Part shown: positions 26,387 through 61,639 of the stretch, in pieces | Numbering within the stretch: position 1 is the stretch's first letter | Layout: each line of letters starts with the position of its first letter | Source: Somniosus microcephalus | Lineage: Eukaryota | Length of the DNA: 64,000 nt | Assembly (NCBI GenBank): GCA_052327205.1 | Contig: CM126204.1 | Coordinates: 352,842,001-352,906,000, forward strand | Direction of reading: 5' to 3' | Program-made: the position numbers and the translations under genes | The notes under the pieces: generated by a model | The model's database searches: none | Told to the model about the DNA's origin: nothing | Seen by the model: the letters and a program-made list of their open reading frames with translations, nothing else

Positions 26387-26849
26387 TAGTCACAAGGGTA
26401 GTCACTTGGGTGAAATGTGTTTATTTTAAAAATGCCATCAGTTGGTTATTGTAAATAAAATTTCTGATGGCAACTTCTGCATTTGTGGCATGTGTCATTT
26501 TGCGAATAGGGCTGGAGGTCCTCTAATGTCCAGATGGGAAGGAAATAAATGGCTCCCATGCTTCTGGTAGATCCCTCAGTTGAGGAAGCGCTGAGTGAGG
26601 GTGGCGAGAGGGGTCTCGCAGGAGGTCACACTGGAGATGGGTGTCAGGCTCCAAACTTCCACAGCTGTGGTTATGCTTTCTAAAAGTTCTCCCAGACCTG
26701 AGACAACAAAGTCCTGCCATCTGCAAATGATGACTGATCAAATATCCTTTTTAATGTTGGACCTGCAGCTGATAGTCAGCAAGCCAATAGTCTTCACGCC
26801 AGGTTTCACAGGCGTCATCCCCACCAGGTGCGTTTTATGTGGGACAGCT

Positions 26850-29800: not shown

Positions 29801-30274
29801 CTTGACTTGTGAACTGTCAAAGGGTGTAGGCGGATCGCTGCCCTAAAAAAAAACTGTACATCGTTATTGAAACGTTGAGATGTTTTCAGTGCTAGTTAAA
29901 TGCTGAGTTTACTTATATGTTTATGCTACCGAGAACATTATGTACAAGAAAGGTTTAAAAGTAATGCATAACATTTTTCTTTTAAAAGAAAGGGGATGTA
30001 ACAGTTGCATATTGAATTATCATTGGCCCACAGGCATCTGTAAGGAATATCGATTATATTCACATGTGATCACATGCTGAGTTGTCATTGGCCTGCAGGC
30101 ATCTGTAAGGACTACTATTGTTTTGAAGACCCAGGCTAGGGGTCCTAATGCCAGGCTTTTCCCCACGGTGCTGTATGAGTAAGATCAGACCTAATGCTTA
30201 TTAAAAGAGTTAAACTGTAATACTCCGTTGTCCTGCAAGTTATTATTTTTGTACGAAGTGTGCAAAACAAGACA
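26850..30274 (+). mobile_element. 5'-truncated Gypsy/Ty3 LTR retrotransposon (element E: PR-RT-RNase H-IN, PPT, 3' LTR ~29997-30274)
   Basis: ORFs 26828..28183 (LRVCLDPRDLN, RLPFG, VDASKYGLGAVL) and 28259..29812 (HHCC, VDYYS, SDNGPQ, SNGLAE); PPT aaaagaaagggga then tgtaac; no 5' LTR or gag. Confidence 0.88.
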
Positions 30275-35842: not shown

Positions 35843-38800
35843 TGTTGAGTCTGAGTGTCCCAGATATGCTTATTCTAAATCACTGGACACAGACAACAAG
35901 AATAACTTAAACAGGTCTTTACTAATCGAAGGTCACGGCTGAACTGCTTAGCAAATTACTACACAGAGTTTATATACCGGTGTGGTCACCACCGGTACTA
36001 CAATATACAGTAGCCAAGAGAAAGTAGTCCATCTCTTAAGGTAGTCTCTTAAGGTGGTACAGGTTACATACACCATAATTCCTCCCTTTTTAGCTTAACA
36101 GTGTACATCCCAATTTAAACATAACATGGATAACATATATACAACTTCATGCAAAACTGTTCAAAGATTCAGTCTCTGAGGAGGCCTCCTGATCCGAGTT
36201 GGATAACGCCTTTCAGGGGTCTCTGATTCTCATTGCTGGGGTGACTCATCTAGTTGATCTCTTATGGGTTGGACATCATCAGATACATTGGCGTCTGAGG
36301 TAGATGCTTCAGGTTCACTAACTTCTTCCACTGGTGTCTCTGTCGTAGTCATGGGTTCGACCCTTGTTCTCGATTCTATAAGTTGGTCAGCATGACGTCG
36401 TATTACGTTTTCACCAATATCTACCGTGTACATCAGGGGTCCCTGTCTGGCACGAATTGTTCCAGATTGCCATTTCTCATTCTTATAGTCCCGGGCTAAC
36501 ACTGGTTGTCCTATTTCGAAACTCCGAGTGGTCTTGTTATTTATATGCTGGAACTGTTTGTTTTCGACTTCCCTCCGCACATTTGGTTTTAACAAGTCCA
36601 ACCTGGACCGCAACCTCCTGTTATAGAACATCATGGCAGGGCTTTGATTTGTCACTGCATGAGTGGCGTTTCGATATGCCATTAGGAAATTGTCCACCTT
36701 GTGTTGTAGTGGAATCTGGTCTTCGCTCATGGCCTTTATCGCCTTTTTGAACGTTTGTACAAATCTCTCGGCCAACCCATTTGTAGCCGGATGATATGGG
36801 GCAGAGGTATAATGTTTCACCCCATTCTTCTTCATGAATTTCTGGAATTCTTCTGACATGAACTGCGGTCCATTGTATGAACATATTTGTTCTGGCAATC
36901 CATTTCTTGCGAATATCGTTCTTAGAACTGCGATCGTCTTTTCCGAGGTAGTGGTCGCCATCTTAATCACTTCTGGCCATTTAGAATGTGCGTCTACCGC
37001 AATTAAAAACATGGAGTCCATGAATGGACCTGCGAAGTCAATATGTACATGTTGCCATGGGGTTGAAGGCCATTCCCATGGATGCAGCGGTGCAATTGGA
37101 GGTGCATTTTGAACTTTTTGGCACCCTGAGCAGCTTTTAGTCAGATCCTCTATTTGTTGGTCGATACCTGGCCACCACACATAAGCCCTAGCAAGGCTTT
37201 TCATCTTGACTCCCCCCAGATGACCTTCATGCAGTTCCTTTAGAACTCTCTCTCTTAATTTAGGAGGAATAATCACCCTTGTTCCATACATCAATGTTCC
37301 TTGACAGACGGACAGCTGTTCTCGCCTGGCTGAGAATGCCGGTAACAGTGGTTCACCATGAGCTGGCCATCCCTTCACTGTCAATTCGTAGACCCAAGAC
37401 AGTGTCGGGTCGTTCCTGGTTTCTCTCTCAATACTTGCATTGGTGACTGGTAAACATTCGATGATGGTCAAGTGAAATAACTCAACAGAGTCAACTGTCG
37501 GTGCCTCTTCCGCTGTAGGTAGTGGCAGGCGCGACAGCCCATCAGCATTACCATGTTGCTTTGTACCTTTGAATTCGATATGATATTGATGTGCCCCTAG
37601 GAAAAGAGACCATCTCTGGAGCCTCTGCGCTGTCATCACCGAAACACCCTTCTTAGGGTTAAAAATGGAAACCAACGGCTGGTGGTCTGTCAGCAGCGTA
37701 AACTTTTGCCCTTGCAGGTAATGATTAAATTTTTTTACTCCCCACACAAGGCTGAGAGCCTCCCTATCTATCTGAGCATAGTTGCGCTCAGCGGAGGTCA
37801 ATGATCTGGATGCGAATGCGACTGGTCTTTCCAAGCCATTTGGCAACTTATGTGAGAGCACTGCCCCACTACCATATGGAGAAGCATCACAAGCTAAACG
37901 AATAGGCAGCGTTGGGTTAAAGTGAGCCAACACTTCCTTAGAGGTGATCAATGCCTTGCTTTTGTGAAAGGCCCGCTTACAGTCCTCGCTCCACTTCCAT
38001 GGCACTCCCTTCTGCAAAAGAACGTTCAGCGGGTGTAGCACCGTGGATAAATTTGGCAGAAACTTATGGTAATAGTTAATAACCCTAGGAACGACCTCAA
38101 CTGGGATACATTTTCCGGAGCGGGAGCCTTCACAACAGCTTCGATCTTGTCAGGTGACTTGTGAAGCCCCTCCTGGTCAATGACGTGACCACAGTACGAG
38201 ATTTGCTTCTGAAAGAACTCACATTTCTGGCGATTAACTCGAAGTCCATATTCTTTCAATCTGGTGAGCACCTGTTCCAAATTTGCAAGGTGTTCCTCAT
38301 CATCATCTCCTGTAATCAGAATGTCGTCCAGGTAGCATTGTGTGCCTGGAATTCCCTGTAATACCTGCTCCATGGCCCTTTGCCAAATCGCTGGAGCCGA
38401 TGCCACTCCAAAAACTAGTCTATTATACCGATATAAGCCCTTATGCGTGTTGATCGTGAGATACTGGCGTGACGCTTCATCAACTTCCATCTGTAAGTGC
38501 GCCTGCGCCAGGTCTATCTTGGTGAAGTGTTTCCCGCCAGACAACGAAGCAAAGATATCCTCAATCCGTGGAAGCGGATATTGCACCGTGTGAAGCACCG
38601 GATTAACAGTGATCTTGAAATCGCCACAGATGCGAACCTTCCCCGGTTCCCCCGGCTTGTTACTCGATGAACGCTTCATGACGGGAACAATGGGCGTGGC
38701 CCATTCACTCCAGTCCACCTTTGACAGTACTCCGGAACGTTCTAGTCCTTCCAGCTCAGCTTCCACAGCAGGTCGTATCGCATAAGGTACCGGTCTAGCT

Positions 38801-41008
38801 TTGAAAAATTTTGGGTTTGCATGTTCTTCAACCTTGATGTTTGCCGTAATTCCTTTCAGTGTTCCCAGTCCCTGCTGGAACACCTCTTTAGCATCGTCCA
38901 ATATTCTGGACAGTCGTTTAGGTTTGACATCGTCCTTTTTACCGGAATCTACAGTTAGTGCTTTTAAGGAATGCCAGTCCATATTTATTCTCCTGATCCA
39001 TTCCCGTCCCAGTAGTGGTGGACCTCCCTCAGGTAACACATATAAGTCCATTCCTCGGCTTTCTTTACCCTTGTGGACCACCTTTACCTTTATCTTTCCA
39101 ATGGGGTATACTCTTTGCCCCGTGTATGTTTTCAATACAATCTCCGTATCCCTTAGGGGAATGTGTGGAAATAACCTTTTGTAATCTTGCTTATTCATGA
39201 CCGTCAATGCCGATCCAGTGTCCAATTCCATCTTCACTTGGACTCCTGCTATCTGAAGTGTGACCCAGATAGTTTGGTGGTCTGCTGTGTTACCCACATT
39301 ATGTATTCTTAGACAACCCAGTTCCTTACTGCTGGAGTCTGAATCCATCTTCTGTTCATCCGAACTGTTCTCTGTCACCTTGTTGCACTTTTCCTGCAGT
39401 GACTTTTTGTTGCTGGTCTTCTTTCCTGACCGGCATACTTTATCTATGTGACCGAGCTTGCCACATTTTCTGCATTCCTGATTTTTGAACCAGCACTGGT
39501 TCTGATCGTGCGTTGTCCTTCCGCAACGATAACACTTTACTGCACCCAATGCCATTTGATTGGTGCTGAGTTCCGATGACCTTAGCTGCATTTCCGCGGT
39601 GCCTCTTGCCGCGGCCTCGTGCGATGCTGCAATGGTGACAGCTTTATCAAGCGTAAGGTCCTTTTCCTCTAGCAGTCGCTTTTGTGTTCCTTCTTTTAAT
39701 AATCCACACACGAATTTATCTCTCAGAGCATCTGCTAGTCCTGTACCAAACTGACAGTACTTTGATAGCTTGCGCAGTTCAATTAAGAATTCAGCGTTGC
39801 TTTCCTCTTTCCGCTGCGTTCTTCTGTAAAATTTAAATCGTTCCGCTATCAGCAGCGGCGTGGGGTTTAAATCTTCTTGCAGGATATTAACAATATTCGC
39901 GAAAGTCTGATCCGCCGGTTTATCTGGTGTTACAAGGTGCCTCAATAACCCGTACGTCTTTGCACCCATTGAGTTTAATAAGGTTAGTGCTTTCTTATCA
40001 TCTGGTACCTCATTTGCTGTACAATAAACTTCAATGCGTTCTACATACGTGGCCCAATCTTCAACATCGCTATCAAAAGCAGTGATGTTACCGTGTTTAG
40101 GCATCCTTGAGAGTTTCTTTAAATATTTTATTTTTCCAAAATGGCGGCTTCCCGCGCTTGTCTTCTTCCCCCGCCTACTACAATGGCGGCTTCCCGCGCT
40201 TGTCTTCTTCCCCCGCTGGCTACAATGGCGATGACCACGCTGTTGCCGTTCTCGCCTCCCAGCGGTTCTTAATTTCCCCGACGCTGCTTTTGCTCCCCCG
40301 CGGTTCTTGTGGGCATTAACGCTTCCCTCGTTGCTGCGCCTCTCAGCCCCGATTGCAGCCCGGCCCTTTTCACCAGCTGTGGTCGAGTTCTCCGTGGTTC
40401 TCGTGGCATTAACGCTGCCCTTGTTGCTGCGCCTCTCGGCCCCGATTGCAGCCCGGCCCTTTTCACCGGCTGCGGTCGAGTTCTCCGCCCTTTTTCCTCC
40501 GGTTTCCCTCCCCTTCTCCACTGACAACACGGCCGACTTTCTGCCCGTGTCGCTAGATCGGCTTACCCACCACCGTGGTAGAAGGATGATCACTGCCTGT
40601 CGCTGATGGAGGACTTCGTGGTCAGTAATTTCAACCTGGGTTCTCGATGCCTCCCGTGCGATGCAGTGCTCAGCAGGATGATGAGGGCGGATGCCTCTTC
40701 TCGATGCCCGTTCTGAGGACGAAGCTGCCTTGGATGCAAAACTGCCGCAGGGTAAGATCGGACTCGTCGCCACTGTTGAGTCTGAGTGTCCCAGATATGC
40801 TTATTCTAAATCACTGGACACAGACAACAAGAATAACTTAAACAGGTCTTTACTAATCGAAGGTCAGGGCTGAACTGCTTAGCAAATTACTACACAGAGT
40901 TTATATACCGGTGTGGTCACCACCGGTACTACAATATACAGTAGCCAAGAGAAAGTAGTCCATCTCTTAAGGTAGTCTCTTAAGGTGGTACAGGTGACAT
41001 ACACCACA
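35843..41008 (-). mobile_element. Full-length Gypsy/Ty3 LTR retrotransposon (element A)
   Basis: 235-bp LTRs 35843-36077 and 40774-41008 (3 mismatches by eye); TSD gttct; PBS TGGCGACGAG (tRNA-Ser-like); PPT aaaagggaggaat. Confidence 0.95.
36165..40104 (-). pseudogene. gag-pol of element A (Gag, 2 zinc knuckles, PR, RT, RNase H, IN); one frameshift near 38050 and a late stop at 36230
   Basis: MPKHGN..., [59 protein letters not shown]. Confidence 0.92.
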
Positions 41009-41859
41009 GTTCTGGGAGGGAGGGGCAGGGGTGAGGGCAGACGTGCGGGAGATAGAACTGACACGGTCAACCATGGTAGAGGGGAATCCTTGGTTGAGGA
41101 AAAAGGAAGACATGTCGGAAGCACTGGTATGGAAGGTGGCATCATCAGAGCAGATGCGGCGGAGACGGAGAAACTGGGAGAATGGAATAGAGTCCTTACA
41201 GGAGGCGGGGTGGGAGGAAGTGTAGTCCAGGTAGCTGTGGGAGTCAGTGGGCTTGTACTGAATGTTGGTCAATAACCTATCCCCAGAGATGGAGACGGAG
41301 AAGTCGAGGAAGGAAGGGAAGAGCCGGAGATGGACCATGTGAAGATGAGGGAAGGGTGGAAATTGGAAGCAAAGTGAATTAAATTCTCTTAACTTCTCCT
41401 GCCTTCTATCCTATCACAGACCTTCCCTTTTGTTCTTTTATCCCCTCCCCCATTTCCCAGCCCCTACACTTGCTTAAAAATCTGTTCCATTTCCTGCTTT
41501 TTTCCAGTTCTGACAAAAGGTCATCGACCTGAAACGTTAACTCTGTTTCCCTCTTCACAGAGGCTGCCTGACTTGCTGAGTATCTCCAGCATTTTCTGAT
41601 CCTATCTCTGTCCTGGCTCCAACCAAAGCAACTCCCACTCTTTATGAGCAGTTATACTGCCAATGCCCTGTGAAGTTGATGGGAATGCTGGGAATGCTTG
41701 GTCTGCCGTAGCATTGCAATGACATAATAATTTGTCTTAATCGTGCAATTTAGACCTTTGGAGAGTTTGAAATTTATAGACAGGGAAGATAGGGGAAAGC
41801 GTGGACTATTCGCTAAACTTCCAGCTGTTCCAGGGTTTCAATTACATTTACAACTATAG

Positions 41860-42812: not shown

Positions 42813-43039
42813 TGACATGAATCAGTCATTCATGAAAGAAAAACTTTTGAAATAATACTGAGCGGCCTACGGGTGGCGCTGTCCAGGGAGAGTATAAATA
42901 CTCGGGCACGGGCCCAGCTTGCGCAGGACATTCTTAACAGGAACTAGTGAAGGACACAACTAGACCTTCATGTTGTAAAACAGTTGATTAAAGCTTTGTT
43001 TAACGCTTAGACCAAGTGCCTAGTAGTTTTCTTACGTCA
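42813..43039 (+). mobile_element. Solo LTR (family X, copy 4)
   Basis: TG...CA; flanks gagtg/gagta; reverse complement of 3071-3299. Confidence 0.8.
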
Positions 43040-43059
43040 GAGTATATCTACAAATGAGC

Positions 43060-45490
43060 AGGGAGTGTAAATCCAGGGTAACGAGCGTAACTCCAGTGCA
43101 GGGAATGTAACTCCAGTGCAGGTAGCGTAACTCCAGTGCAGGGAGAGTAACTCCAGTGGAGGGGGAGTAACTCCAGTGCAGGGAGAGTAACTCCAGGGCA
43201 ATGAGCATAACTCCAGTGCAGGGAGTATAAGTCCAGCGCAACAAGCGTAACTCCAGTGCAGGGAGAGTAACTCCAGGGCAACGAGCGTAACTCCAGTGCA
43301 GGGAGTGTAAGTCCAGCGCAAGGAGAGTAACTCCAATGCAGGGAGAGTAACTCCATGGAAATGAGTGTAACTCCAGCACAGGGAGACTAACTAGTGCAGG
43401 GAGAGTAACTCCATGGCATGGATTGTAAGTCCTGCACAGCAAAAGTATCTCCTGTACAGGGAGAGTAACTCCAGCACAGGGAGAGTAACGCCAGTGCAGG
43501 GAGAGTAACTCCAGTGCAGCGAGAGTAACACCAGTGCAGGGAGAGTAACACCAGTGCAGGGAGAGTAACACCAGTGCAGGGAGAGTAACTCCAGCACAGG
43601 GAGAGTAACTCCAGTGCAGGGAGAGTAACTCCAGGTCAGGGAGCGTAACTCCAGTGCAGGGAGAGTAACTCCAGGTCAGGGAGCGTAACTCCAGTGCAGG
43701 GAGAGTAACTCCAGGTCAGGGAGAGTAACTCCAGCACAGAGAGAGTAACTCCAGTGCAGGGAGAATATCTTCAGTGCAGGGAGAGTAACTCCAGTGCAGG
43801 GAGAGTAACTCCAGCGCAGGGAGAGTAACTCCAGCGCAGGGAGAGTAACTCCAATACAGGGAAAGTAACTCCAGTGCAGGGAGAGTAACTCCAGGTCAGG
43901 GAGAGTAACTCCAGCACAGAGAGAGTAACTCCAGTGCAGGGAGAATATCTTCAGTGCAGGGAGAGTAACTCCAGTGCAGGGAGAGTAACTCCAGCGCAGG
44001 GAGAGTAACTCCAGTGCAGGGAGAGTAACTCCAGTACAGGGAAAGTAACCCCAGTGCAGGGAGAGTAACTCCAGTGCAGGGAGAGTAACTCCAGCGCAGG
44101 GAGAGTAACTCCAGTACAGGGAAAGTAACTCCAGTGCAGGGAGAGTAACTCCAGTGCAGGGAGAGTAACTCCAGCGCAGGGAGAGTAACTCAAGTGCAGG
44201 GAGAGTAACTCCAGTGCAGGGAGAGTAACTCCAGTGCAAGGAGAGTAACTCCAGGTCAGGGAGAGTAACTCCAGTGCAGGGAGAGTAACTCCAGGTCAGG
44301 GAGAGTAACTCCAGCACAGAGAGAGTAACTCCAGTGCAGGGAGAATATCTTCAGTGCAGGGAGAGTAACTCCAGCGCAGGGAGAGTAACTCCAGCACGGG
44401 GAGAGTAACACCAGTGCAGGGAGAGTAACACCAGTGCAGGGAGAGTAACTCCAGCGCAGGGAGAGTAACTCCAGTGCAAGGAGAGTAACGCCAGTGCAGG
44501 GAGAGTAACTCCAGTGCAGGGAGAGTAACTCCAATGCAGGGAGAGTAACTCCAGTGCAGGGAGAGTAACTCCAGTGCAGGGAGAGTAACTCCAGCTCAGG
44601 GAGAGTAACTCCAGTGCAGGGAGAGTAACTCCAGTGCAGGGAGAGTAACTCCAGTGCAGGGAGAGTAACTCCAGTGCAGGGAGTAACTCCAGTGCAGGGA
44701 GAGTAACGCCAGTGCAGGGAGAGTAACTCCAGCGCAGGGAGAGTAACTCCAGCGCAGGGAGAGTAACTCCAGTGCAGGGAGAGTAACGCCAGTGCAGGGA
44801 GAGTAACTCCAGTGCAGGGAGAGTAACTCCAGCGCAGGGAGAGTAACACCAGCGCAGGGAGAGTAACTCCAGCGCAGGGAGAGTAACTCCAGTTCAGGGA
44901 AAGTAACTCCAGTGCAGGGAGAGTAACTCCAGCGCAGGGAGAGTAACTCCGGCGCAGGGAGAGTAACTCCAGTGCAGGGAGAGTAACTCCAGCGCAGGGA
45001 GAGTAACTCCAGCACAGGGAGAATAACTCCAGTGCAGGGAGAGTAACTCCAGTGCAGGGAGAGTAACTCCAGTGCAGGGTGAGTAACTCCAGTGCAGGGA
45101 GAGTAACTCCAGCACAGGAAGAGTAACTCCAGCGCAGGGAGAGTAACTCCAGCGCAGGGAGAGTAACACCAGTGCAGGGTGAGTAACTCCAGCGCAGGAA
45201 GAGTAACTCCAGCGCAGGGAGAGTAACTCCAGCGCAGGGAGAGTAACACCAGTGCAGGGTGAGTAACTCCAGTGCAGGGAGAGTAACTCCAGCACAGGAA
45301 GAGTAACTCCAGCGCAGGGAGAGTAACTCCAGCGCAGGGAGAGTAACTCCAGTGCAGGGAGAATAACTCCAGCGCAGGGAGAGTAACTCCAGCACAGGGA
45401 AAGTAACTCCAGTGCAGGGAGAATAACTCCAGTGCAGGGAGAGTAACTCCAGCGCAGGGAGAGTAACTCCAGCACGGGGAGAGTCACTCC
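43060..45490. repeat. Minisatellite, 20-bp unit gggagagtaactccagtgca, ~120 copies
   Basis: Direct reading; variant units (-cgca, -caca, -gtca, gagaatatcttc) recur in blocks. Confidence 0.97.
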
Positions 45491-46979: not shown

Positions 46980-47314
46980 GCTGACTATCTGGTGTAGTAC
47001 TCAAGGCTGTACTGTTGGAGGTGCCGGCATTCTGTTGAGATGTTAAACTAAAGTCTTGTCTGCTCATTCAGGTGAACATTCAAGATGCTATGAGACTATT
47101 TGAGGAAGAGCGGAGAGTTCTTATTCCCAGTGTCCTGGGCAATATTCTTCTCCCAACTAAACCCATCAAAAACAGATTAACTGGTCATTCATCTCCTTGC
47201 TCTTTGTGAGATCTTGCTGTGTGAAAAATGGCTGCTTTGTTTGTCTACATAGCACCAATCACTGAATTTCAAAACGATTTATTTTTTAAGAAGCACTTTG
47301 ACCTGAGTCTGAGG
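46980..47314 (+). mobile_element. Deu-SINE (degenerate); target of element B
   Basis: ggaggtgccggcattctgttgagatgttaaac core; the tail resumes after 51892. Confidence 0.65.
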
Positions 47315-50300
47315 TGTAAAGTCTGTGGGTTATATGGTGAATTAATACACAGACTACAAGAGTAACTTTAACAGGACTTTACTATTCGAAGGTCAGGGCG
47401 AATCTGCCCAATAAATCCTTACACAGCACTTATATACCGGTGTGGTCACCACCGGTATTACAGTATACAGCAGCCAAGATAAAGTAGTGCAACACCTAAA
47501 ATAGTTCTCTTAAAGGTGGATGGTTACATACAATAGTTCTCTTAAAGGTAGAACGGTTACATACACTACAATCCTCCCTTTTTAGCTTACAACATACTTA
47601 TTCCCCATTAAACATAACATCATAACATCTATCCAACTTCATTTAAAAACAGTTCACAGATGTAGTCTCTGCGGAAAACAGTTCACAGATGTAGTCTCTG
47701 CGGAAAACAGTTCACAGATTCAGTCTCTGCGGAAAACAGTTCACAGATTCAGTCTCTGTGGAGGCGCCTCCTGTGCTTCTTGACTCGGTCCGGACAATGC
47801 CTCGGTGGTGTAGCAGTTTCCTGTGGTATAGTCGGTTCACGTTGCTGGAGTGACTCATCCAATAGTCCTTCACTGGACTTAACAGCTTGAACTTCCGTCA
47901 CTTCTGAACCAGCATTGTTGACTTCTAAAAGCTTGAGTACCTTGGGAAGTTTTTCTACTTCCAAACTGATTTGGCTCCGTTCGGAGGGACCACGTGCGTG
48001 ATCTGGTAGAGGTGATAATGGTTCAGATGGGACATCTTCTTCTGTTTCGTCTTTTCCTTTCCTGCTTCTTGGAGACTCTCTGTGCTCCGCTGCCAGCCGC
48101 ATGCACAGTTCCTCCTCCTCTTTCTCCTGTTGCCTTAGCAGTGCCACTATCTCCCGGTGTTTCTTAGACTTTTTGTGATTCTTCAGGGTTTGTGCACTTC
48201 GGAAGATTTCCCCACAAGCTGGGCAGAACAGGTCCTCGTTATATTCGGTGTCGTTCAACAGGACATGGTAATAATCGGTGTCGTCCTGAGCTAGGCCAGC
48301 GAGAGGGTCTTTTATTTCCTCCATGCCCAGCTGGACGTTAGCCAGCTTTTGTTCCAAGTCCCGACATCTCTCCTGAAGAGACTTCTTCATGTGTTCAGCT
48401 TCCTCCAGCTTTTTCTGGGCTTCCTGCAAGTCTTTTATTAATGACCTCATTCGTGATTTCAATGCTTCAACTTCCTTCGGAGATTGATTGATCGTACTAT
48501 TCAATCCCTCTACTGGAGCAGCTGTTTCAGCATTTTGTTGTTCGACATTGACGTGAGTCAGCGTACGTTTGGCATCCAAGGGTTGCTCTGCTGCCATCTT
48601 CTCAGTCTGTGTTGCAACCTCAGCTATTTCAATAACTTTTGAGAGCTCCGAACCCCTTTCCTTTGAAGATTGAAGCTCGTGTTCAAATTGTTCCCATTTC
48701 AGAGTCTTGTCCCTCAGCATATGAAGGAGTTGGCTGACCGTTAACTCTTCTGACCTCATCCATTTCCCAGTAGCTGCAGGGCTGTTTATAACCTTGCCCT
48801 GGGGCTCCTTTGCTGTTTCTACTTCGCCATCATCCGCAGCCTCCACCATTCGAATTTCCACAAATGAATCGTCCGGTGGTGCTGCACCCAACTTCAGTAG
48901 GAGCTCGGAATTCATGGCGACCAACTCAGCCTTTTCTGCCTGCAATCTGCTAACAAGCGCCTTCAGTTGCTGAACATCTTGCTCCACCAGATTAGAGCAC
49001 GCACCTTCAGAAACCGAATCAGCTTTGATTCGTTTGGCCTCCTTGCGCAGACGGTTTGTGTGCTCCTGCTCCCTTTTCTCCCTCAGCTGTTTCTGTTGTC
49101 TTTCCAGATTCTCCCACTCTGTGTCAAAGAACGTTTTCATTGCTTTTATCTCTTGCTCGAGACGGCAACTCAATTGTTCTAATTGCTGTTGTAATTTGAA
49201 ATGGAGTTGAGTTCGAGCCCGGTGTTCCTCAGACTTGTGCATGTCTGTAAACTGGACAGACTCAGAATTCTCTGCCAAACTATGTTGTTGTTGTTCAGTG
49301 GAATTCTGTTCTGAAACTTTGTTCTCCTTTGAAGCATCAGTATTTATGCACTCCTTCGTTTTTCCAACCTTAGTCAGCAAGTCCATTTTAGACTTGTCTT
49401 TCGCACCTGGGCTGGTCTTGTCGTCATCCGTTTCAGAGTCTGAGCTGATTGTCTTCACCGAGTTCTCACTCGTTATTGCTTTTAGGTAGTGCCATTCCAT
49501 ATTTATTTCCCTGATCCACTCCCGTCCCAGAAGTGGTGGACCTCCCTCAGGTAGTACATATAAGTCCATTCCTTGGTGTTCTTTGCCCCTGTCTCTCACC
49601 TTGACTTGTATCTTTCCCATGGGGTATACTTTATGCCCCGTGTATGTCTGCAATACGATCTTGGTATCTCTCAAGGGTATATGTGAGAATAGCCGGTTGT
49701 AATCCCTTCGATTTATGACTGATAGGGCTGATCCTGTGTCCAATTCCATTTTCACTTGGACTCCGGCTACTTTTAGTGTGACCCAGATAGTTTGTAGGTT
49801 AGCTTCCTTACTCACATTGTGAATTCTCAGACTACCCAGTTCCTGGCCGTTCGGGTCTGAATGCGAATTCTGTTCATCTGAACTCTTCTCAGCCACCTTG
49901 TGTACCTTGCTGTCCTTTTCCTGAGGTGACTTTTTTCTGTTGTTGGTCTTCTTTCCTGACCGGCATACTTTAGCTATGTGACCAAGCTTGCCACATTTTC
50001 TACATTCCTGGTTTTTAAACCAGCATTGGTTCTGGTCGTGTGTTGTCTTCCCACAACGATAACATTTTGTTGTACCCGAAGTCATTTGATCCACGCTGAG
50101 TACCGCTGCCTTCAGCTGCATTTCCGCAGTGCCTCTCACGGCTGCTTCGTGTGATGCTGCAATAAGGACAGCCTTGTCAAGTGTAAGATCGTTCTCTTCG
50201 AGCAGTCGCTTTTGTGTTCCTTCCTTCGACAACCCGCACACGAACTTATCTCTCAATGCCTCTGTCAGATTTTCCCCAAACTGGCAGTATTTCGCTAGTC

Positions 50301-51887
50301 TACGCAGTTCGACCAAGTATTCCGCGTTGCTTTCCTCTTTCCGTTGCGTTCTCGCATAAAATTTGAATCATTCCGCCAACATCAGCGGTGTGGGGTTCAA
50401 ATGATCCTTCAGGACAGCAACAATATCAGCGAAAGTCTGATCCGCCGGTTTAGCTGGTGATAGAAGATGCTTCAATAGCCCGTATGTCTTCGCCCCCATT
50501 GCGTTTAATAAGGTGAGAGCTTTATCATCATCTGCTATTTTATTGGCCTCACAATATATCTCGATGCGTTCTACGTACGTGGCCCAATCTTCCACTTCGG
50601 AATCGAAGTTGTTGATGTTACCATGCTTAGGCATCTTCACTATCTTTTTGAGAAACCACAACGAATTTGTTCGTTACTTTTTTTTTCCAAAAATGGCGGT
50701 TTCCCGCGCTTCTGTCTTCTTCCCCCCTACTGGCGGCTTCCCGCATTTCTTCCCCTGGCGGGAGGGGTAAGCTTTCCTTCGGGCGACGACCGCTGGCTTT
50801 CGGAGTTCGCAGCCTGCGCGCCGGCTTCAGTGCGTTCCTTGTTCCCTTTTCTCGGCCGGCAACCGGCGCTGGGGACAACCCGTTGGCGGCGAACAGTTCC
50901 AGCCGCTGGGCGGAATCTCGCTCGGTCTCCCTCGCTCGGTCCCGTTCCCCCTTCACTCGGCTCTGTCTCTCCCTCAGCGGCTTCCAATCGCGCCTCCCAG
51001 CCCTCTCGCAGTCCGGTCCTTTCCTCCCCCGGCTGCGGCTGAGTTCTCCGCGGTTTTATTTATTTTTATATCTTCCCGCGCCTTACAATCCCGGTCGCAG
51101 CGCCTCGTGGCCTCGGTAGCTGCCCGGCCTTTTTCGCCGGTCGCGGTCTAGCTGTCTCACGACGCTGTTGCGTCTCCCAGCCCGCTTGTAGCCCGGTCTC
51201 TCACACCGGCTGCGTTCCCGCTTGTAGCCCGGTCTCTCACACCGGCTGCGTTCCCGCTTGTACCGCGGCTTCCGTGCCCTACGCTGCCCCAGTCTCAGCG
51301 CCTCTGGGCCCGACTTCTGTCCGGCTCCTTTCCCCCGACCGTGGTCGAGTTCACCGCCCTTATCCTCCGTTTCTTTTTATTTTCCCCCTACTCACAGTCA
51401 ACGTGGCCGACTTGCTTCTCTTGGCTGATCGGCTCACTCACCGCCGTGGCAGAAGGGACAATAACAGCCTGTTGCTGATGGAAGGCTTCGTGTCTGAATC
51501 CTTCCTTCTTCCTTGCTCTGCAGACTCGAGTCTTCTCTCAGCAGAACGACGAGGGCGGGTGCCTCTTCTCGACGCTCGTTAACTGCTTCAGGTGTGTCGC
51601 TGCCGCAGGGTAAGATCGAACCCGTCGCCACTGTAAAGTCTGTGGGTTATATGGTGAATTAATACACAGACTACAAGAGTAACTTTAACAGGACTTTACT
51701 ATTCGAAGGTCAGGGCGAATCTGCCCAATAAATCCTTACACAGCACTTATATACCGGTGTGGTCACCACCGGTATTACAGTATACAGCAGCCAAGATAAA
51801 GTAGTGCAACACCTAAAATAGTTCTCTTAAAGGTGGACGGTTACATACAATAGTTCTCTTAAAGGTAGAACGGTTACATACACTACA
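47315..51887 (-). mobile_element. Non-autonomous Gypsy LTR element B carrying host-gene-like cargo
   Basis: 256-bp LTRs 47315-47570 and 51632-51887 (1 mismatch by eye); TSD tgagg; PBS TGGCGACGGG; PPT aaaaagggaggat; no RT/IN motifs. Confidence 0.95.
47749..50634 (-). CDS. Chimeric Gag-protease-cargo polyprotein (STK10/SLK-like coiled coil + optineurin-like segment with LIR + DNAJC21-like zinc finger + integrase C-terminal tail); single CGA>TGA stop at 50368-50370
   Basis: ORFs 50368..50661 and 47749..50316 are in the same frame; Gag/PR homologous to element A; cargo motifs [88 protein letters not shown]. Confidence 0.85.
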
Positions 51888-52064
51888 TGAGGGACATGTT
51901 AAAGTGTTACACATATAGAACCCAAGAATCATACAGCACAGAAGAAGGCCATCCAAGTGGATAAGGCAAGCGCTGTGTCCAGACACTCAAACAGCTCCAT
52001 ATATTGAGCATGGTGCTCATTGCACAAGCCTATTCAGCCATGTGGTCCTAGATTACTCTCTCTG

Positions 52065-52940: not shown

Positions 52941-55900
52941 TGTAGTGTGTGTACCCGTCTACCTTTAAGAGAACTATTGTATGTAACCGTTCACCTTTAA
53001 GAGAATTATTTTAGGTGTGGCACTACTTTGTTTGGCTTCTGTATACTGTAATACCGACGGTGACCACACCAGTATATAAGTGTTGTGTCAGGAATTATTG
53101 GGCAGATTCGCCCTGACCTTCGAATAGTAAAGTCCTGTTTTAAGTTACTCTTGGAGTCTGTGTATTAATTAACTAAACAACCCACAGACTTTACAGTGGC
53201 GACGAGTCCGATCGTACCCTGTGGCAACAATACGTCCGAAGCAGTTAACGAGCGTCGAGAAGAGGCAACCGCCCTCGTCGTTCTGCTGGGAAAAAACTCG
53301 AGGCTGCAGAACTAGAAAGGAGGAAGAATTTAGAGACAAAGACTTCCATCAGCAACAGGCACTGACTGTCCCTTCTGCCACGGTGAGGAGTGAGCCGATC
53401 AGCACGAGAAGCAAGGCGGCCACGGTGACTGTGAGTAAGGGAAAGTAAAAAGAATAACCGGAGGATAAGGGCGGTGCACTCGACCACGGTCGAGGGGGAA
53501 AGGAGCCGGACAGAAGTCGGGCCCAGAGGCGCTGAGACTGGGGCAGCGTGGAGCAAGGAAGCCGCGGTACAGACAGGCTGGGGACGCAACGGCGTTGTGA
53601 GACAGCTAGACCGCGACCGGCGAAAAAGGCCGGGCAGCGACCGAAGCCACGAAGCGCTGCGACCGAGAGCGTAGGCGCGGGAAGATATAAAAACTCAGCC
53701 GCAGCCGGGGAGGGAAGCACCGGACTGCGAGAGGGCTGGGAGGCGCGATTGGGAGCCGAGTGAGCGGGAGAGGCAGAGCCGACCAAGGGAGACTGAGCGA
53801 GAGCCAGTCCAGCGGCTGAAACTGTTCGCCGTCAACGGGGTGTACCCAGCGCCGGTAGAGCCGAGCGAGCGGGAGAGAAACAGAGCCCGAGCAAGGGGAA
53901 CTGAGTGAGAGCCAGCCCAGCGGCTGAAACTGTTCGCCGTCAATGGGGTGTACCCAGCGCCGGTTGCCCTGCCGAGAAAAGGGAAAGCACTGAAGCCGAC
54001 GCGCAGGCTGTGAACCTGAAAGCCAGCGGCCGTCGCCCGTGGGGGAAGTGTACCCCTCCCGCCAGGGGAAGGAACGCGGGAAGCCGCCATTAGGCGGAGA
54101 AGAAGACAGAAGCGGGGAACCGCCATTGAAGTGGGCGGGGAGAGAAGATAAGCGCGGGAAACCGCCATTTTCGCGGGAACCGCCATCTTGGGAAAAGAAA
54201 AAAAAATTTTAAAGAAATAATTCGTGGTGTTATCAGGAAGAGAGGAAGATGCCTAAGCGTGGTAACATCAACAATTTTAATTCCGAGGTAGAAGACTGGG
54301 CCACGTATGTGGAACGCATTGAGATCTATTGTGAGGCCAATAAAATAGAAGAAGATGACAAAGCTATAACCTTGCTAAACTCGATGGGCGCGAAGACATG
54401 TGAGCTCTTGAAGCATCTACTAGCACCAGCTAAACCGGCGGATCAGACTTTCGATGATATTGTGACTGTTCTGAAGGATCACTTGAACCCCACACCGTTG
54501 ATGTTGGCGGAACGATTCAAATTCTATGCGAGAACGCAAAGGAACGATGAAAGCAACGCAGAATACTTGGTCGAACTGCGTAGACTAGCGAAACACTGCC
54601 AGTTTGGAGGGAATCTGACAGAGGCATTGCGAGACAAGTTCGTGTGCGGATTGGCAAAGGAAGGAACGCAAAAGCGACTACTCGAAGAGAACGACCTTAC
54701 ACTTGACAGGGCTGTCCTTATTGCAGCATCGCACGAAGCCGCAGCGAAGGGAACTGCGGAAATGCAGCTAAAGACAGCGGCACTCAGTGTGGATCAAATT
54801 ACCTCGACAACAACAAAATGCTATCGTTGTGGGAAGACAACACACGACCAGAACCAATGCTGGTTTAAGAACCAGGAATGTAGGAAATGTGGCAAACTGG
54901 GTCACATAGCTAAGGTATGCCGGTCAGGGAAGAAGACCAACAACCAAAGGACCAACAACCAAAGGAAGCCATCACAGGAAAAGTACAACAAGGTACACAA
55001 GGTGGCTGAGAAGAGTTCAGACGAACAGAATTCGGACTCAGACCCAAACGGCCAGGAGCTGGGTAGTCTGAGAATTCACAATGTGAGTAAGGAAGCTGAC
55101 CTACAAACTATCTGGGTCATGCTAAAAATAGCTGGAGTCCAAGTGAAAATGGAGTTGGACACTGGATCAGCTCTATCAGTCATAAATCGAAGGGATTACC
55201 ACCAGCTATTCTCACATATACCCTTAAGGGATACCAAGTTCGTATTGCAGACATACACGGGGCATAAAGTATGCCCCATGGGAAAGATAAGAGTCAAGGT
55301 GAGAGATAGGGGTAAAGAACACCCAAGAATGAACTTATACGTACTACCTGAGGGAGGACCACCACTTCTAGGATGGGAGTGGATCAAGAAAATAGACATG
55401 GAATGGCCCTATCTAAAAGCCATAACGAGTGAGGACTCGGTGCAGACAATCAGCTCAGATTCTGAATCGGATGACGATAAGACCAACCCAAATGTGAAAG
55501 ACAAGGCTAAAATGGACTTGCCGACTAAGGTTGGAAAAACGAAGGCATGCCGAAAGGCTTATGCTTCAGAGAAGAACAAAGTTTCAGAACAGAGCTCCAC
55601 CGAACAACGACAACATAGTTTGACAGAGAATTCTGAGTCTGTTCAGTTTAAGGACATATCCATGACGGAAGAACACCGAGCTCAGACTCAACTTTATTTC
55701 AAATCACGACAACAATTAGAACAATTGAGTTACCGTCTCGTACAAGAGATGAAAACAATGAAAAAGTTCTATGACACCGAATGGGAGAATCTGGAAAGAC
55801 AACAGAAGCAGCTAGCTCAAGCAGAGAGCGACCATAGAGCCATCGTGACCAATCACCGATCACATCTCCCTTATGATGTTCAGGAGTTAGAATATTTACA

Positions 55901-57818
55901 GAAAGAAGCAAATGAAGAGGAATCTTCAGGAAGCCAGGATTTTATTCCAGTTCTTCTCTACGACTCCTTACAAGCAGAGTTTGAGAAGTTGAAGGAACAG
56001 GCCCAGGCTACAATCCTGGAGGGGGTTAACTCAGCAACCTCCGAAAAGCTAGTTTCAGTGGAAGCATATGAGCAACTAAAGGTTGAACATGAACAAGAAG
56101 TCCAAAGGCTGCAGGAAATTCTTAATGAGCTCAAGGCCAAGACAGACTCATCGGTAGAAGTTCCATCCATAGATGAGAAATTAGAGGTGAAAGACATGGC
56201 AGAACATGAAAGTCAAGATGTCCAAGAACTCATAAAAATATTGAAGGAAACCCAAGACAAATATGAGGCGGCAATGACCGAGGTTCAACAACTTGAAGAA
56301 CAGATTCAACTGGGAATTCTTTCAGTGAAAGAAAAGGCAACTGTAAGAAACACAGAGACTGTAAGAATGGCCCCTGAACATGAGCTAGAGAGCATCAAGG
56401 CGCAACTTCTCCGAGCGCTTAAAGCCAAAGTACAAGAGGAAAAAAAGGTGAAAGCATTGGAGGAAAAGGTGGATGAAATAGAGAAGACTCTGATCCACAG
56501 GGTCCCCGTGGAAGAGTTAACGGTCAGCCAACTCCTTCATATGCTGAGAGACAAGACTCTGCAAGGGGAACCATTTGAACACGAGCTTCAATCTTCAAAG
56601 GGAAGGGGTTCGGAGCTCTCAAAAGTTTGGGGAATAGTTGAGGTTGCAACACAGATTTTACGGGGCTGCCGAAAGTACGCTGAATCACGTCAATGGGAAC
56701 TACAGAATGTTGAAACAGCTGCTCCAATAGAAGGATTGAATAGCCCGATCAATCAATCCCCGATGGAAGGGGAAGTATTGGAATCACAAATGAGGTCATT
56801 AGTGAAGGACTGGCAGGAAACCCAGGAAGAGCGGGATGAATATGAACGCATGAAGAAGTCTCTTCAGGAAAGATGTCTAGGGAGGGAACAACAGTCAGCT
56901 AACGTCCAGTTGGGTAAGGAAGAAGTAGCAGGCCCTCTCGCTAGACTAGCTCAAGACGACACCGAATATTACCATGACCTGTTGAGTGACACGGAATATT
57001 ACGAGGACTTGGTCTGCCCAGCTTGTGATGAAAACTCCCAAAGTGCAGAAATCAGGATGAAGCACTTAAAGTCTAAGGAACATAGGGAGATGGTGGCGCT
57101 ACAGCTGGCAGCTGATAAGGGAGCCCCGAGAGTCTCCAAGAAGCAGAAAAGAAAAAGACGAAGCAGAAGACGATAACCATCTAAATCATTATCACTTCTA
57201 TCAGATCATGCACGTGGGCCCTATGAAGGAGGCCAAATCAGTTGGAAAGTAGGAAAAATTACCAAGGCAGTCCAGCTGTTTGTAAAAGTCAGCACTGCTG
57301 GTTCAGCAGGACGGAAGTTCAAGCTGTTAAGCCAAGGGAAAGACTATTGGATGAGTCACGCTAGAAATGTGAACCGGCTACACCACAGAGATGTTGTTCG
57401 GACCGAGTTAAGACCAGAGACTGAATCTGTGAACTGTTCCCGCAGAGACTGAATCTGTGAACTGTTTCCCGCAGAGACTATATCTGTGAATTGTTTTACA
57501 TGAAGTTGATTATATGTTATGTTTAATGGGGAATAAGTATGTTGTAAGCTAAAAAGGGAGGATTGTAGTGTATGTACCCGTCTACCTTTAAGAGAACTAT
57601 TGTATGTAACCGTTCACCTTTAAGAGAATTATTTTAGGTGTGGCACTACTTTGTTTGGCTTCTGTATACTGTAATACCGACAGTGACCACACCAGTATAT
57701 AAGTGTTGTGTCAGGAATTATTGGGCAGATTCGCCCTGACCTTCGAATAGTAAAGTCCTGTTTTAAGTTACTCTTGGAGTCTGTGTATTAATTAACTAAA
57801 CAACCCACAGACTTTACA
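52941..57818 (+). mobile_element. Non-autonomous Gypsy LTR element C carrying host-gene-like cargo
   Basis: 255-bp LTRs 52941-53195 and 57564-57818 (2 mismatches by eye); TSD ctgtg/ctatg; PBS TGGCGACGAG at 53197; PPT aaaaagggaggat; no RT/IN motifs. Confidence 0.95.
54249..57176 (+). CDS. Intact 975-aa chimeric Gag-protease-cargo polyprotein (STK10/SLK-like + ANKRD24/RAI14-like + optineurin-like + DNAJC21-like segments)
   Basis: Uninterrupted ORF; Gag, 2 CCHC knuckles, LDTGS protease, then [73 protein letters not shown]-x12-H-x5-H. Confidence 0.88.
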   Translation: MPKRGNINNFNSEVEDWATYVERIEIYCEANKIEEDDKAITLLNSMGAKTCELLKHLLAPAKPADQTFDDIVTVLKDHLNPTPLMLAERFKFYARTQRNDESNAEYLVELRRLAKHCQFGGNLTEALRDKFVCGLAKEGTQKRLLEENDLTLDRAVLIAASHEAAAKGTAEMQLKTAALSVDQITSTTTKCYRCGKTTHDQNQCWFKNQECRKCGKLGHIAKVCRSGKKTNNQRTNNQRKPSQEKYNKVHKVAEKSSDEQNSDSDPNGQELGSLRIHNVSKEADLQTIWVMLKIAGVQVKMELDTGSALSVINRRDYHQLFSHIPLRDTKFVLQTYTGHKVCPMGKIRVKVRDRGKEHPRMNLYVLPEGGPPLLGWEWIKKIDMEWPYLKAITSEDSVQTISSDSESDDDKTNPNVKDKAKMDLPTKVGKTKACRKAYASEKNKVSEQSSTEQRQHSLTENSESVQFKDISMTEEHRAQTQLYFKSRQQLEQLSYRLVQEMKTMKKFYDTEWENLERQQKQLAQAESDHRAIVTNHRSHLPYDVQELEYLQKEANEEESSGSQDFIPVLLYDSLQAEFEKLKEQAQATILEGVNSATSEKLVSVEAYEQLKVEHEQEVQRLQEILNELKAKTDSSVEVPSIDEKLEVKDMAEHESQDVQELIKILKETQDKYEAAMTEVQQLEEQIQLGILSVKEKATVRNTETVRMAPEHELESIKAQLLRALKAKVQEEKKVKALEEKVDEIEKTLIHRVPVEELTVSQLLHMLRDKTLQGEPFEHELQSSKGRGSELSKVWGIVEVATQILRGCRKYAESRQWELQNVETAAPIEGLNSPINQSPMEGEVLESQMRSLVKDWQETQEERDEYERMKKSLQERCLGREQQSANVQLGKEEVAGPLARLAQDDTEYYHDLLSDTEYYEDLVCPACDENSQSAEIRMKHLKSKEHREMVALQLAADKGAPRVSKKQKRKRRSRRR

Positions 57819-59329: not shown

Positions 59330-60838
59330 TATTCATTGATGGGATGTGGGCGTCGCTGGCTAGGCCTGCATTTAATGCCCATCCCTAATTGCCCTTGAGA
59401 AGATGGTGGTGAGCCGCCTTCTTGAACCGCTGCAGTCCATATAGTGCAGGTACACCCACAATGCTGTTAGGAAGGGAGTTCCAGGATTTTGGCCCAGCGA
59501 CAGTGAAGGAACGGCGATACAGGTCCAAGTCAGGATGGTGTGTGGCTTGGAGGGGGACTTGTAGGTGGTGATGTTCCCATGCGTCTGCTGCCCTTGTCCT
59601 TCTAAGTGGTAGAGGTCGCGGGTTTGGAAGGTGCTGTTGAAGGAGCTTTGGCGAGTTGCTGCAGTGCATCTTGTAGATGGTACACACTGCAGCCACAGTG
59701 CGCCGATGGTGGAGGGAGTGAATGTTGAAGGTGGTGGATGGAGTGCCAATCAAGCGGGCTGCTTTATCCTGAATGGTGTCGAGCTTCTTGCGTGTTGTTG
59801 GAGCTGCACTCATCCAGGCAAGTGGAGAGTATTCCATCACACTCCTGACTTGTGCCTTGTAGATGGTGGAAAGGCTTTGGGGAGTCAGGAGGTGAGACAC
59901 TCACCGCAGAATTCCCAGCCTCTGGCCTGCTCTTGTAGCTACAGTATTTATATGGCTGGTCCAGTTCAGTTTCTGGTCAATGGTAACCCCCAGGATGTTG
60001 ATAGTGGGGGATTCAGCAATGGTAATGCCATTGAATGTCAAGGGGAGATGGTTAGAGTCTCGCTTGTTGGAGATGGTCATTGCCTGGCACTTGTGTGGTG
60101 CGAATGTTACTTGCCACTTGCCAGCCCAAGTCTGAATGTTGTCCAGGCCTTGCTGCATATGGACACGGACTGCGTCAGTATCTGATGAGTCTCGAATGGT
60201 GCTGAACAGTGTGCAATCATCAGCGAACATCCCCACTTCTGACCTTATGATGGAGGGAAGGTCATTGATGAAACAGCTGAAGATGGTTGGGCCTAGGACA
60301 CTGCCCTGAGGAACTCCTGCAGTGATGTCATGTGATTGAGATGAATGACCTCCAACAACCACAGCCAACTTCCTTTGTGCTAGGTATGATTCCAACCAAT
60401 GGAGAGTTTTCCCCTTGATTCCCATTGACTTCAGTTTTGCTAGGGCTCCTTGATGCCACACTCGATCAAATGCTGCCTTGATGTCAAGGGCAGTCACTCT
60501 CACCTCACCTCTTGAGTTCAGCTCTTTTGTCCATGTTTGGACCAAGGCTGTAATGAGGTCAGGAGCTGAGTGGCCCTGGCGGAACCCAAACTGGGCGTCA
60601 GTTAGCAGGCTATTGCTGAGTAAGTGCCGCTTGATAGCACTGTCGACGACACCTTCCATCACTTTGCTGATGATTGAGAGTAGACTGATGGGACAGTAAT
60701 TGGCCGGGTCGGATTTGTCCTGCTTTTTGTAGACAGGACATACTTGGGCAATTTTCCACATTGCCGGGTAGATGCCAGTGTTGTAGCTGTACCGGAACAG
60801 CTTGGCTAGGGGCGCAGCTAGTTCTGGAGCACAAGTCT
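59330..60838 (-). mobile_element. L2/CR1-superfamily LINE RT fragment
   Basis: ORFs 59901..60761 (ALDIKAAFDRVWH, VPQGSVLGP, MFADD) and 59385..59900. Confidence 0.9.
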
Positions 60839-61639
60839 TAAGGAATCAAGGCCAAGTGTGATCTTCCAATGAGGTAGGGTTAGAGGACGGGGGAATTGGA
60901 GCAGGGTGTGCAGATGTAATCAGTCCCCATTTTAAAGTCACATATTTTGTCTTTATCTTTACATGATACTTTTATTTACTATTACTATTTATAATTAAAA
61001 TAGAAAAATGCACAGTAATTTGAGAAGTAAAGCTGTATGGGTCACAAGAGTTTCTCTGCAGTACAGAATGAAGAGCTGGGAGATGCAAGACTCAAGTGTT
61101 ACAGTGTCACCACCAGCACGAAGGTGTTGTTGCAGCGTGACAAGTTTACGTTGGGAGTTTCAATTGTAAATGTGGATGTGGAGATTTATAATGGAAAGCA
61201 CTGACAGGAAGTATGCACGGATGTAAAATTATAACAAAAAACATCTGCACATACTTCCTAGCTGCACCACTTGACTTCCTGTCTTCATGTTTTAGAATCA
61301 TAGAATAGTACAACACTTTTTGTCAGCTTTTCCCATTCTTAAAATCCAATGGGGGAAACATTTGTCCCCTTAGCTCCTCCCATTAGCACCAGTAGATGGC
61401 ACTAATGGGGTGCTAGAGCAGTATCGCCCAGGCGTGGTGAATCCAGCGCCGCACGTCAAATCCGGCGCCCCCATAGCGCCGCCGGTAAGAGGAATCGCCA
61501 GGTATTTCATGACGTCAGTGAGTGCGCAATGGTCACTGACCGCCCAATTTGCAAAATTGATTCTTGCCACTTACCTCACCGCCTGGAGTAAACACCGACA
61601 GGGAGAGCTGGCGTGCAGCACCAGGAAGCCGGCTCCAAG

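Follow-up and report, generated by a model that had tools for sequence, protein, structure and literature searches.

A Ty3/Gypsy retrotransposon family of Somniosus microcephalus carries spliced host gene fragments with back-splice-type junctions and has probably acquired them by serial RNA capture

In the model of Tan et al. (PMC5131818), retrocopies mediated by long terminal repeat (LTR) elements arise by template switching, with microhomology at the switch points. Dong et al. (PMC4897178) report 33 mouse copies of the circular RNA (circRNA) circRFWD2 that are associated with LTR sequence, and LTR involvement in circRNA retrocopies has only been suggested (PMC4897178, PMC5408686). We analyzed a 64,000-nucleotide stretch of Somniosus microcephalus (the window; assembly GCA_052327205.1, contig CM126204.1, positions 352,842,001 to 352,906,000) that contains an LTR retrotransposon, element B, at positions 47315-51887 on the minus strand. 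Its reading frame carries pieces of the host genes STK10, OPTN (optineurin), and DNAJC21, and less-deleted relatives elsewhere in the genome hold a complete turn of an STK10 exon circle. We consider it likely that the family captured host RNAs serially, circRNAs included, by template switching of reverse transcriptase (RT) at microhomologies, and that the cargo is mostly a near-neutral passenger. The main weight of the finding lies on this capture series more than on the LC3-interacting region (LIR) of optineurin.

Comparison of the window with itself by BLAST delimits element B by two 256-bp LTRs that are 99.6% identical and by the 5-bp target-site duplication (TSD) TGAGG, which mark it as a young insertion. 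It is a non-autonomous derivative of a Ty3/Gypsy LTR retrotransposon: RT, RNase H, and integrase are absent from element B and from its sister, element C, and the cargo stands there in frame after the protease. What the cargo replaced can be seen in element A (35843-41012, minus strand), a related Gypsy element that has gag, protease, RT, RNase H, and integrase; its pol is split over two frames near 38.0-38.1 kb. We presume that the family belongs to the Mag clade, a label that reflects resemblance (a single gag-pol frame and two zinc knuckles) rather than placement in an RT phylogeny. The frame of element B runs through Gag, protease, STK10 amino acids ~400-482, STK10 ~613-683, OPTN, the DNAJC21 zinc finger, STK10 ~327-389, and the last pol codons. 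Its features, in window coordinates, are the following.

47310-47314, unstranded: TSD TGAGG, repeated at 51888-51892
47315-47570, minus: 3' LTR with TG...CA ends, 256 bp, 99.6% identical to 51632-51887
47572-47583, minus: polypurine tract adjoining the 3' LTR
47749-47853, minus: remnant of the pol 3' end with stop codon, in frame with the cargo, matching the pol end of element A from the shared motif on
47854-48042, minus: STK10 piece c, amino acids ~327-389 (spliced, from the last part of host exon 8 into the first part of exon 9)
48058-48234, minus: DNAJC21-derived C2H2 zinc finger and the stretch that follows it (Pfam zf-C2H2_jaz, E=4e-7; best matches DNAJC21)
48235-48315: stretch without assignment between the DNAJC21 and OPTN pieces
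48316-49026, minus: OPTN exons 3-8 (partial), spliced, amino acids ~133-385 of shark OPTN
48853-48873, minus: LIR motif DDSFVEI, from the translation
48889-48987, minus: OPTN leucine zipper, four heptad leucines retained
49021-49233, minus: STK10 piece b, amino acids ~613-683, PKK coiled coil (host exons 11-12, spliced; Pfam PKK, E=6e-12)
49234-49470, minus: STK10 piece a, amino acids ~400-482 (host exon 9)
49492-49794, minus: aspartic protease with intact LDTG (Pfam)
49963-50064, minus: two CCHC zinc knuckles of Gag (Pfam)
50065-50634, minus: capsid part of gag, start codon at 50634, in-frame stop at 50368-50370 in this copy
51619-51631, minus: primer-binding-site-like sequence adjoining the 5' LTR
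51632-51887, minus: 5' LTR

An uninterrupted frame of ~960 codons is present in 5 of the 12 near-identical copies of element B that were fetched, and the protease LDTG is retained in 50 of 50 copies. The in-frame gag stop means that the copy in the window could not itself make the fusion from the gag start. The initial annotation had described an optineurin segment fused to Gag; the two do share a frame, but the protease and two STK10 pieces lie between them and the gag stop interrupts this copy.

The STK10 pieces of element B stand in permuted order, and piece c ends at the motif where the STK10 cargo starts in less-deleted sister copies (exon numbers here and below were counted by us from the fetched host regions). 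In those sisters, a single STK10 motif marks both ends of the cargo, and this motif is similar to pol sequence in two places, directly behind the protease and at the pol 3' end. Permuted order together with an identical motif at both cargo ends predicts an ancestral form with the whole exon circle, and a search with the host STK10 stretch missing from element B bore this out, with 39 further matches at 99-100% identity among 40 scored. The circle copies start in the middle of exon 9, run through exons 10, 11, and 12, continue with exon 8, and close at the point of exon 9 where they began. At the exon-12-to-8 junction, the host donor is joined to the host acceptor with at most one mismatch in 11 of 12 loci; a 5-nt deletion affects the remaining locus. 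Of four copies, the pattern found both occurrences of the switch motif in three, where their spacing is 1,245 nt, a multiple of three. In the sister copies, the 1,245-nt STK10 exon circle is thus present for one turn and no more, and its back-splice junction is exact to the base. Genome-wide, the junction motif has 1,119 matches, compared with 3 for a reversed control. Element B itself preserves only the permuted order, its back-splice junction having been overwritten by OPTN. A back-splice junction in genomic DNA, the mark of a circRNA-derived retrocopy, is found in the STK10 sisters and also in the ANKRD24 cargo of element C.

Two other observations concern the surroundings of STK10. The STK10 intron that precedes exon 8, the first exon of the circle, contains a sense-oriented Gypsy element of 5 kb with 72% identity to element A (G000:C8:167.208-167.213 Mb). 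A separate intronless STK10 copy (L078:4271-4945; amino acids 750-974, 94% identity) lies beside a 970-bp inverted repeat and has no similarity to element A or B.

The initial annotation recognized optineurin from the peptide sequence, and this identification stands. The peptide lies in a single open minus-strand frame; a database search with residues 375-780 of the open reading frame (ORF) ranks shark optineurins first (top E=4.3e-84), and ORF residues 450-686 align to Pristiophorus OPTN 133-385 with 71% identity (E=1e-107). Cat OPTN 137-333 is 40% identical to the segment, and two solved OPTN fragments are weak matches to element B (E=0.0075 and 0.026). The host OPTN gene is located in the same genome at G000:C17:85.87-85.91 Mb, and the element matches its exons 3-8 at 83-95% DNA identity with the exons joined without introns, indicating that the donor was a spliced RNA. 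The cargo starts 9 nt inside exon 3 and ends ~5 nt before the end of exon 8; these ends near exon borders would fit a circular donor, which colinear cargo cannot prove. The leucine zipper and the LIR are present, while the N-terminal TBK1-binding region, UBAN, and C-terminal zinc finger are absent. The annotated loss of the first two agrees with the host gene comparison, in which exons 2 and 9 are unmatched in 35 element-bearing loci screened exon by exon and in 60 more. The LIR is intact at the annotated position and keeps the Ser directly before its Phe; the Ser four residues further upstream has become Pro in element B (AAPPDD, compared with AASPDD in the host). Of the 119 OPTN-type matches listed, 113 contain the motif (S/T)F(V/I)EI. 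The frame of the assembled host OPTN (G000:C17, L056) is broken by two single-base insertions, located where exon 5 ends and exon 6 begins, that neither the element copies nor the proteins of other sharks share; this is probably an assembly error, a real disruption being the alternative.

Element C carries a second non-colinear junction. Its LTRs are 99.2% identical, and a piece of ANKRD24/ankycorbin replaces the zipper and LIR.

52941-57818, plus: element C, sister of element B
55808-56517, plus: ANKRD24/ankycorbin cargo of element C; two exons are joined non-colinearly at 55883|55884

In this cargo, ANKRD24 amino acids 1056-1080 are followed by amino acids 492-703, the host donor of a late exon being joined to the host acceptor of a large earlier exon. 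A full-length C-type element with ANKRD24 cargo also lies antisense in an ANKRD24 intron, just before the captured late exon (L171:2072 to L172:3961, G000:C13). The frame of element C ends inside its DNAJC21 piece (57100-57176) in the DNAJC21 reading frame, with a basic tail; element B uses another frame and continues into STK10, so that the 3' part of its DNAJC21 piece is read out of the DNAJC21 frame. The DNAJC21 host gene was not located in the genome by a PF21884 search, and one locus from that search (G000:C17:58.31-58.37 Mb) was rejected as donor, as it does not match the DNAJC21 cargo.

The fetched copies form a nested series. Circle-only copies are followed by copies with an internally deleted STK10 and OPTN exons 3-8 over the former back-splice site, then by copies with a further deletion, then by copies with DNAJC21 added, and finally by B-like, zipper-LIR-deleted, and ANKRD24-bearing branches. 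Identity to the host exons is 93-100% in the circle-only form, mostly 94-100% in the STK10+OPTN form (deletions lower the value for exon 6), 83-95% in element B, and 76-92% in element C; the nested structure and this growing distance from the host genes suggest the order of captures. Microhomology of 4-9 nt is present at all junctions examined: pol/STK10 at both ends, STK10/OPTN, OPTN/STK10, the STK10 deletion, the OPTN deletion, and ANKRD24/OPTN; the set excludes the DNAJC21 junctions, whose donor gene was not located. The two LTRs of a copy are 96-100% identical to each other, and 5-bp TSDs are present at 37 of 47 fetched loci, which argues for recent spread. The family accounts for ~12,900 motif matches and thousands of dispersed copies, or roughly 0.9% of the assembly if every match were full length. 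Sequencing runs X1-X6, from three organisms, also contain the cargo region of element B (25-68% of sampled words), which indicates that the family either predates species boundaries or crosses them. Inserts without assigned origin, of ~140 amino acids between protease and STK10 (L049), of several hundred bases inside the ANKRD24 piece (L147, L149, L160), and of 43 amino acids near the tail (L042, L043), are candidates for more captured genes. Same-orientation pairs of copies ~4.3 kb apart (G000:C8:211110108/211114421, C1:10173326/10177721, and C19:73916236/73920503) are possibly tandem elements sharing an LTR.

Two observations suggest that translation of the cargo matters. Shared cargo indels keep the frame in 39 of 54 cases, compared with 26 of 55 private ones (p=0.011, a noisy figure because some shifts are compensated pairs; L144, L150, L151, and L153 duplicate loci of the LIR sample described below and were dropped from this count). 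In addition, starting at the protease or at the edge of the locus, the frame is open as far as the exon-5 codons in 39 of 60 sampled loci.

In the history that we favor, RT would have switched, at a 9-nt motif near the pol end, from the element RNA to the same motif in a co-packaged circular STK10 RNA (exons 8-12). There it would have gone round the circle once, copying all 1,245 nt and crossing the back-splice junction, before it rejoined the element at the like motif just after the protease. By this capture, RT, RNase H, and integrase would have been lost and the frame kept open. Later switches at 4-9-nt microhomologies would have deleted part of STK10 and written spliced OPTN exons 3-8 over the back-splice junction. 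The DNAJC21 piece would have been added after that, and one branch would have gained the ANKRD24 piece, crossing a second back-splice junction. The family was presumably mobilized in trans by autonomous relatives, with its Gag-protease-cargo frame kept translatable and the cargo presumably translated.

Several points weigh against this history. The presumed parent circRNAs of STK10 and ANKRD24 were not seen in RNA, and element transcripts carry the same junction as a parent STK10 circRNA would. A linear transcript with repeated exons would leave an identical STK10 product, and the ANKRD24 junction has a short CAG|G similarity (4 nt) that a backward template jump could use. The OPTN and DNAJC21 cargo is colinear, which leaves a circular donor unproven for both. 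No autonomous partner of the element B family was identified. Synonymous divergence (dS) between element B and the STK10+OPTN copies is higher in gag-protease (0.14-0.31) than in the cargo (0.06-0.10), suggesting that gag-protease was exchanged with other lineages. The ratio of non-synonymous to synonymous change (omega) in gag-protease is 0.13-0.39 between lineages and mostly ~1 within them, and the dS difference means that this constraint cannot be credited to the non-autonomous elements. All genome-wide counts are motif matches in one 6.45-Gb assembly, not curated copies. Finally, OPTN exon 3, which holds the zipper and the LIR flank, shows 17 synonymous and 15-19 non-synonymous shared changes (omega 0.35-0.44) among 70 LIR-bearing copies, a constraint not expected of a pure passenger.

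The exon 3 result raises the question of whether the zipper-LIR module is kept and selected. The 70 copies are exact motif matches from contig C1 only, out of 2,149 matches genome-wide, and the seven codons used to find copies were excluded from the test; L031-L050, 20 loci chosen by OPTN protein similarity, were left out of it and included in the 50-copy FVEI count below. The other cargo has an omega of 0.79-0.85 (Fisher p 0.009-0.042 across thresholds), although the LIR-bearing copies share lineages and the first 30 alone give p 0.08. Permutation gives p 0.0015-0.01 for exon 3 as a pre-named block and 0.017-0.09 for the lowest of seven blocks. Private changes are near neutral (omega ~1) in exon 3 and other cargo alike, and the synonymous rates are equal in the first 30 copies (0.283 in exon 3 and 0.282 in the rest). 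The four heptad leucines are retained in 70, 70, 70, and 69 of the 70 copies. The initial annotation had named LIR conservation across copies as a check: FVEI is invariant in 50 of 50, but so are 17 of 212 four-codon windows. Over the whole OPTN cargo, the 13 synonymous and 29 non-synonymous changes shared by the B family relative to the host do not differ from neutral, and element C cargo has an omega of ~0.7-1.0 relative to the host.

The module has also been lost repeatedly. With one mismatch allowed, the LIR motif has 2,149 matches genome-wide versus 11,775 for an OPTN exon 5 motif (controls, 3 and 1), and 16 of 30 LIR copies also match the exon-5 motif, so the LIR remains in ~17% of OPTN-bearing copies. 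Among 30 OPTN-bearing copies taken in order along C1, 26 lack the LIR: 12 have an in-frame deletion of zipper and LIR, 14 have the ANKRD24 replacement, and 4 have the LIR. These two losses form separate clades, and reads and contigs of relatives show a third deletion of the LIR region. The same picture emerges from two raw RNA runs of a related organism, of which 24-31% each was used. The family is covered end to end in both, and first mates fall ~95% on one strand in one run, which means sense transcription given the usual stranded protocol. Depth over the LIR is ~1/5 of that in downstream OPTN bins in one run (179-231 versus 977-1,199) and ~1/4 in the other; 231-nt and 291-nt skips of the LIR region occur in the reads, and LIR-less variants dominate. 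Most of these reads are 90-95% similar to element B, so that they represent the family rather than this copy.

An alternative that we regard as possible but doubtful is that a minority of branches uses the zipper-LIR module. The translated cargo would bind LC3/GABARAP, and possibly ATG9A vesicles or Rab8, either as a decoy or to bring unassembled Gag-protease-cargo to membranes. Exon 3 constraint at a normal synonymous rate, the nearly unbroken heptad leucines, the invariant FVEI, and sense transcription of the family in a related organism would fit such use. The zipper of OPTN recruits ATG9A vesicles without TBK1 or ubiquitin binding (PMC7480101), and GABARAPs aid HIV-1 genome packaging (PMC12678799). 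Against this stand the loss of the module in ~5/6 of OPTN-bearing copies, at least twice in this genome and once more in relatives, and the weakening of the exon 3 signal when any of seven blocks is allowed, in the first 30 copies, and by shared lineages. TBK1 binding to OPTN is reported as needed for Ser177 phosphorylation (PMC5962687), and the TBK1-binding N-terminal region is missing from the cargo. The cargo also occupies the Pol slot. RT and integrase of Ty3/Gypsy elements lie inside the capsid of the particle. Exposure of a LIR at the Pol position on finished capsids is doubtful for that reason. The proposal of the initial annotation that the segment acts as an autophagy decoy or routes capsids to LC3 membranes is thus partly supported, by the moderate constraint on exon 3, and weakened by the frequent loss of the LIR. 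We regard the zipper-LIR exon as an optional module that appears to be under moderate constraint where kept and is discarded in the most numerous branches; its LC3 binding is a prediction from sequence. A broader proposal, which we think unlikely, is that this Gypsy family routinely packages circRNAs as exon donors (STK10, ANKRD24, perhaps OPTN) for serial domain shuffling, and that one branch was selected to keep a zipper-LIR module engaging ATG9A/LC3 membranes during particle assembly.

It is improbable, in our judgment, that the non-colinear junctions came from trans-spliced or exon-repeated linear RNAs or from RT jumping backward on its template. DNA alone cannot separate a circle from an exon-repeated linear RNA, the 4-nt similarity at the ANKRD24 junction would permit a jump, and Dong et al. 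(PMC4897178) note that non-colinear junctions can arise by other routes. However, the STK10 junction is base-precise at both splice sites, and linear mRNA offers only ~2-3 nt of similarity there. Entry and exit use the same motif, one circle length apart. The cargo contains the circle exons only, with nothing of exons 7 or 13, and each STK10 exon appears once in the 70 kb of host locus fetched, which shows no tandem exon duplication. The idea that the host has domesticated the locus as a chimeric gene, and that it is not a selfish element, can be dismissed almost outright, since the long open frames of many copies are outweighed by the thousands of dispersed copies with near-identical LTR pairs and TSDs, by neutral decay within lineages (omega ~1), and by the gag stop in element B.

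Other mobile sequences share the window, in which no tRNA gene was found.

3949-5274 and 59385-60845: LINE RT fragments, the latter identified by eye
26738-29812, plus: Gypsy-type RT-RNase H-integrase fragments
42925-45490: 20-bp minisatellite of ~120 copies; a like array flanks the element in locus L037
~62500-63475, plus: Gypsy-type gag-protease region, ~70% similar to elements A, B, and C

The mechanism of circRNA retrotransposition was left open by Dong et al. (PMC4897178), and a circle turn within an LTR element, with an identical switch motif at both ends and standing beside its descendants, offers a direct and testable mechanism. The family records the stepwise in-frame shuffling of four genes with the intermediates still in the genome. 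Transcribed fragments of OPTN, STK10, and ANKRD24, present in thousands, might influence the host genes by way of small RNAs or coiled-coil pairing, and such captured fragments will interfere with the annotation of these genes in sharks and with the mapping of RNA to them. If the constraint on the zipper-LIR exon holds, this would be a retrotransposon carrying a selected autophagy module.

Element B shares with gag-keeping non-autonomous LTR elements and with retroviral oncogene transduction the loss of pol, an in-frame fusion of host sequence to Gag, and dependence on a helper; it differs in that no envelope was seen in the element and the cargo shows no sign of conferring an advantage. Compared with optineurin (PMC5962687, PMC7480101), the cargo has the leucine zipper, of which the ATG9A-binding part in human OPTN is 143-164 (PMC7480101), the LIR with its upstream Ser, and the middle coiled coil. 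The N-terminal TBK1-binding region, UBAN, and the C-terminal zinc finger are missing from it, which rules out a role as ubiquitin-cargo receptor, and the zinc finger that it does have is that of DNAJC21. Like the LTR-mediated retrocopies of Tan et al., including maize Bs1 (PMC5131818), the shark elements have spliced host exons replacing internal ORFs, microsimilarity at switch points, multigene chimeras, sense in-frame cargo, and secondary retroposition as non-autonomous elements, and element B itself shows the features of this class that were tested (intronless cargo, microsimilarity, and secondary retroposition). Unlike those retrocopies, the family preserves its intermediates, retains Gag-protease, and appears to have drawn on circular donors; it exceeds 12,000 motif matches, compared with 1-5 copies of Bs1, and the string "circ" is absent from the main text of that paper. 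Within a limited literature that did not extend to Repbase or Dfam, we found no earlier account of the family, nor of any LTR element that contains a full circRNA turn. With the circRNA-derived pseudogenes of Dong et al. (PMC4897178), the family shares a non-colinear back-splice junction in the genome, a restriction to circle exons, and an association with LTRs. In those pseudogenes, LTRs are only enriched in the flanks and the mechanism is called mysterious. In the shark family, a complete LTR element encloses the circle, which was opened at a single shared motif, copied for one turn and no more, and kept in frame with Gag-protease; a second gene bears the same kind of signature.

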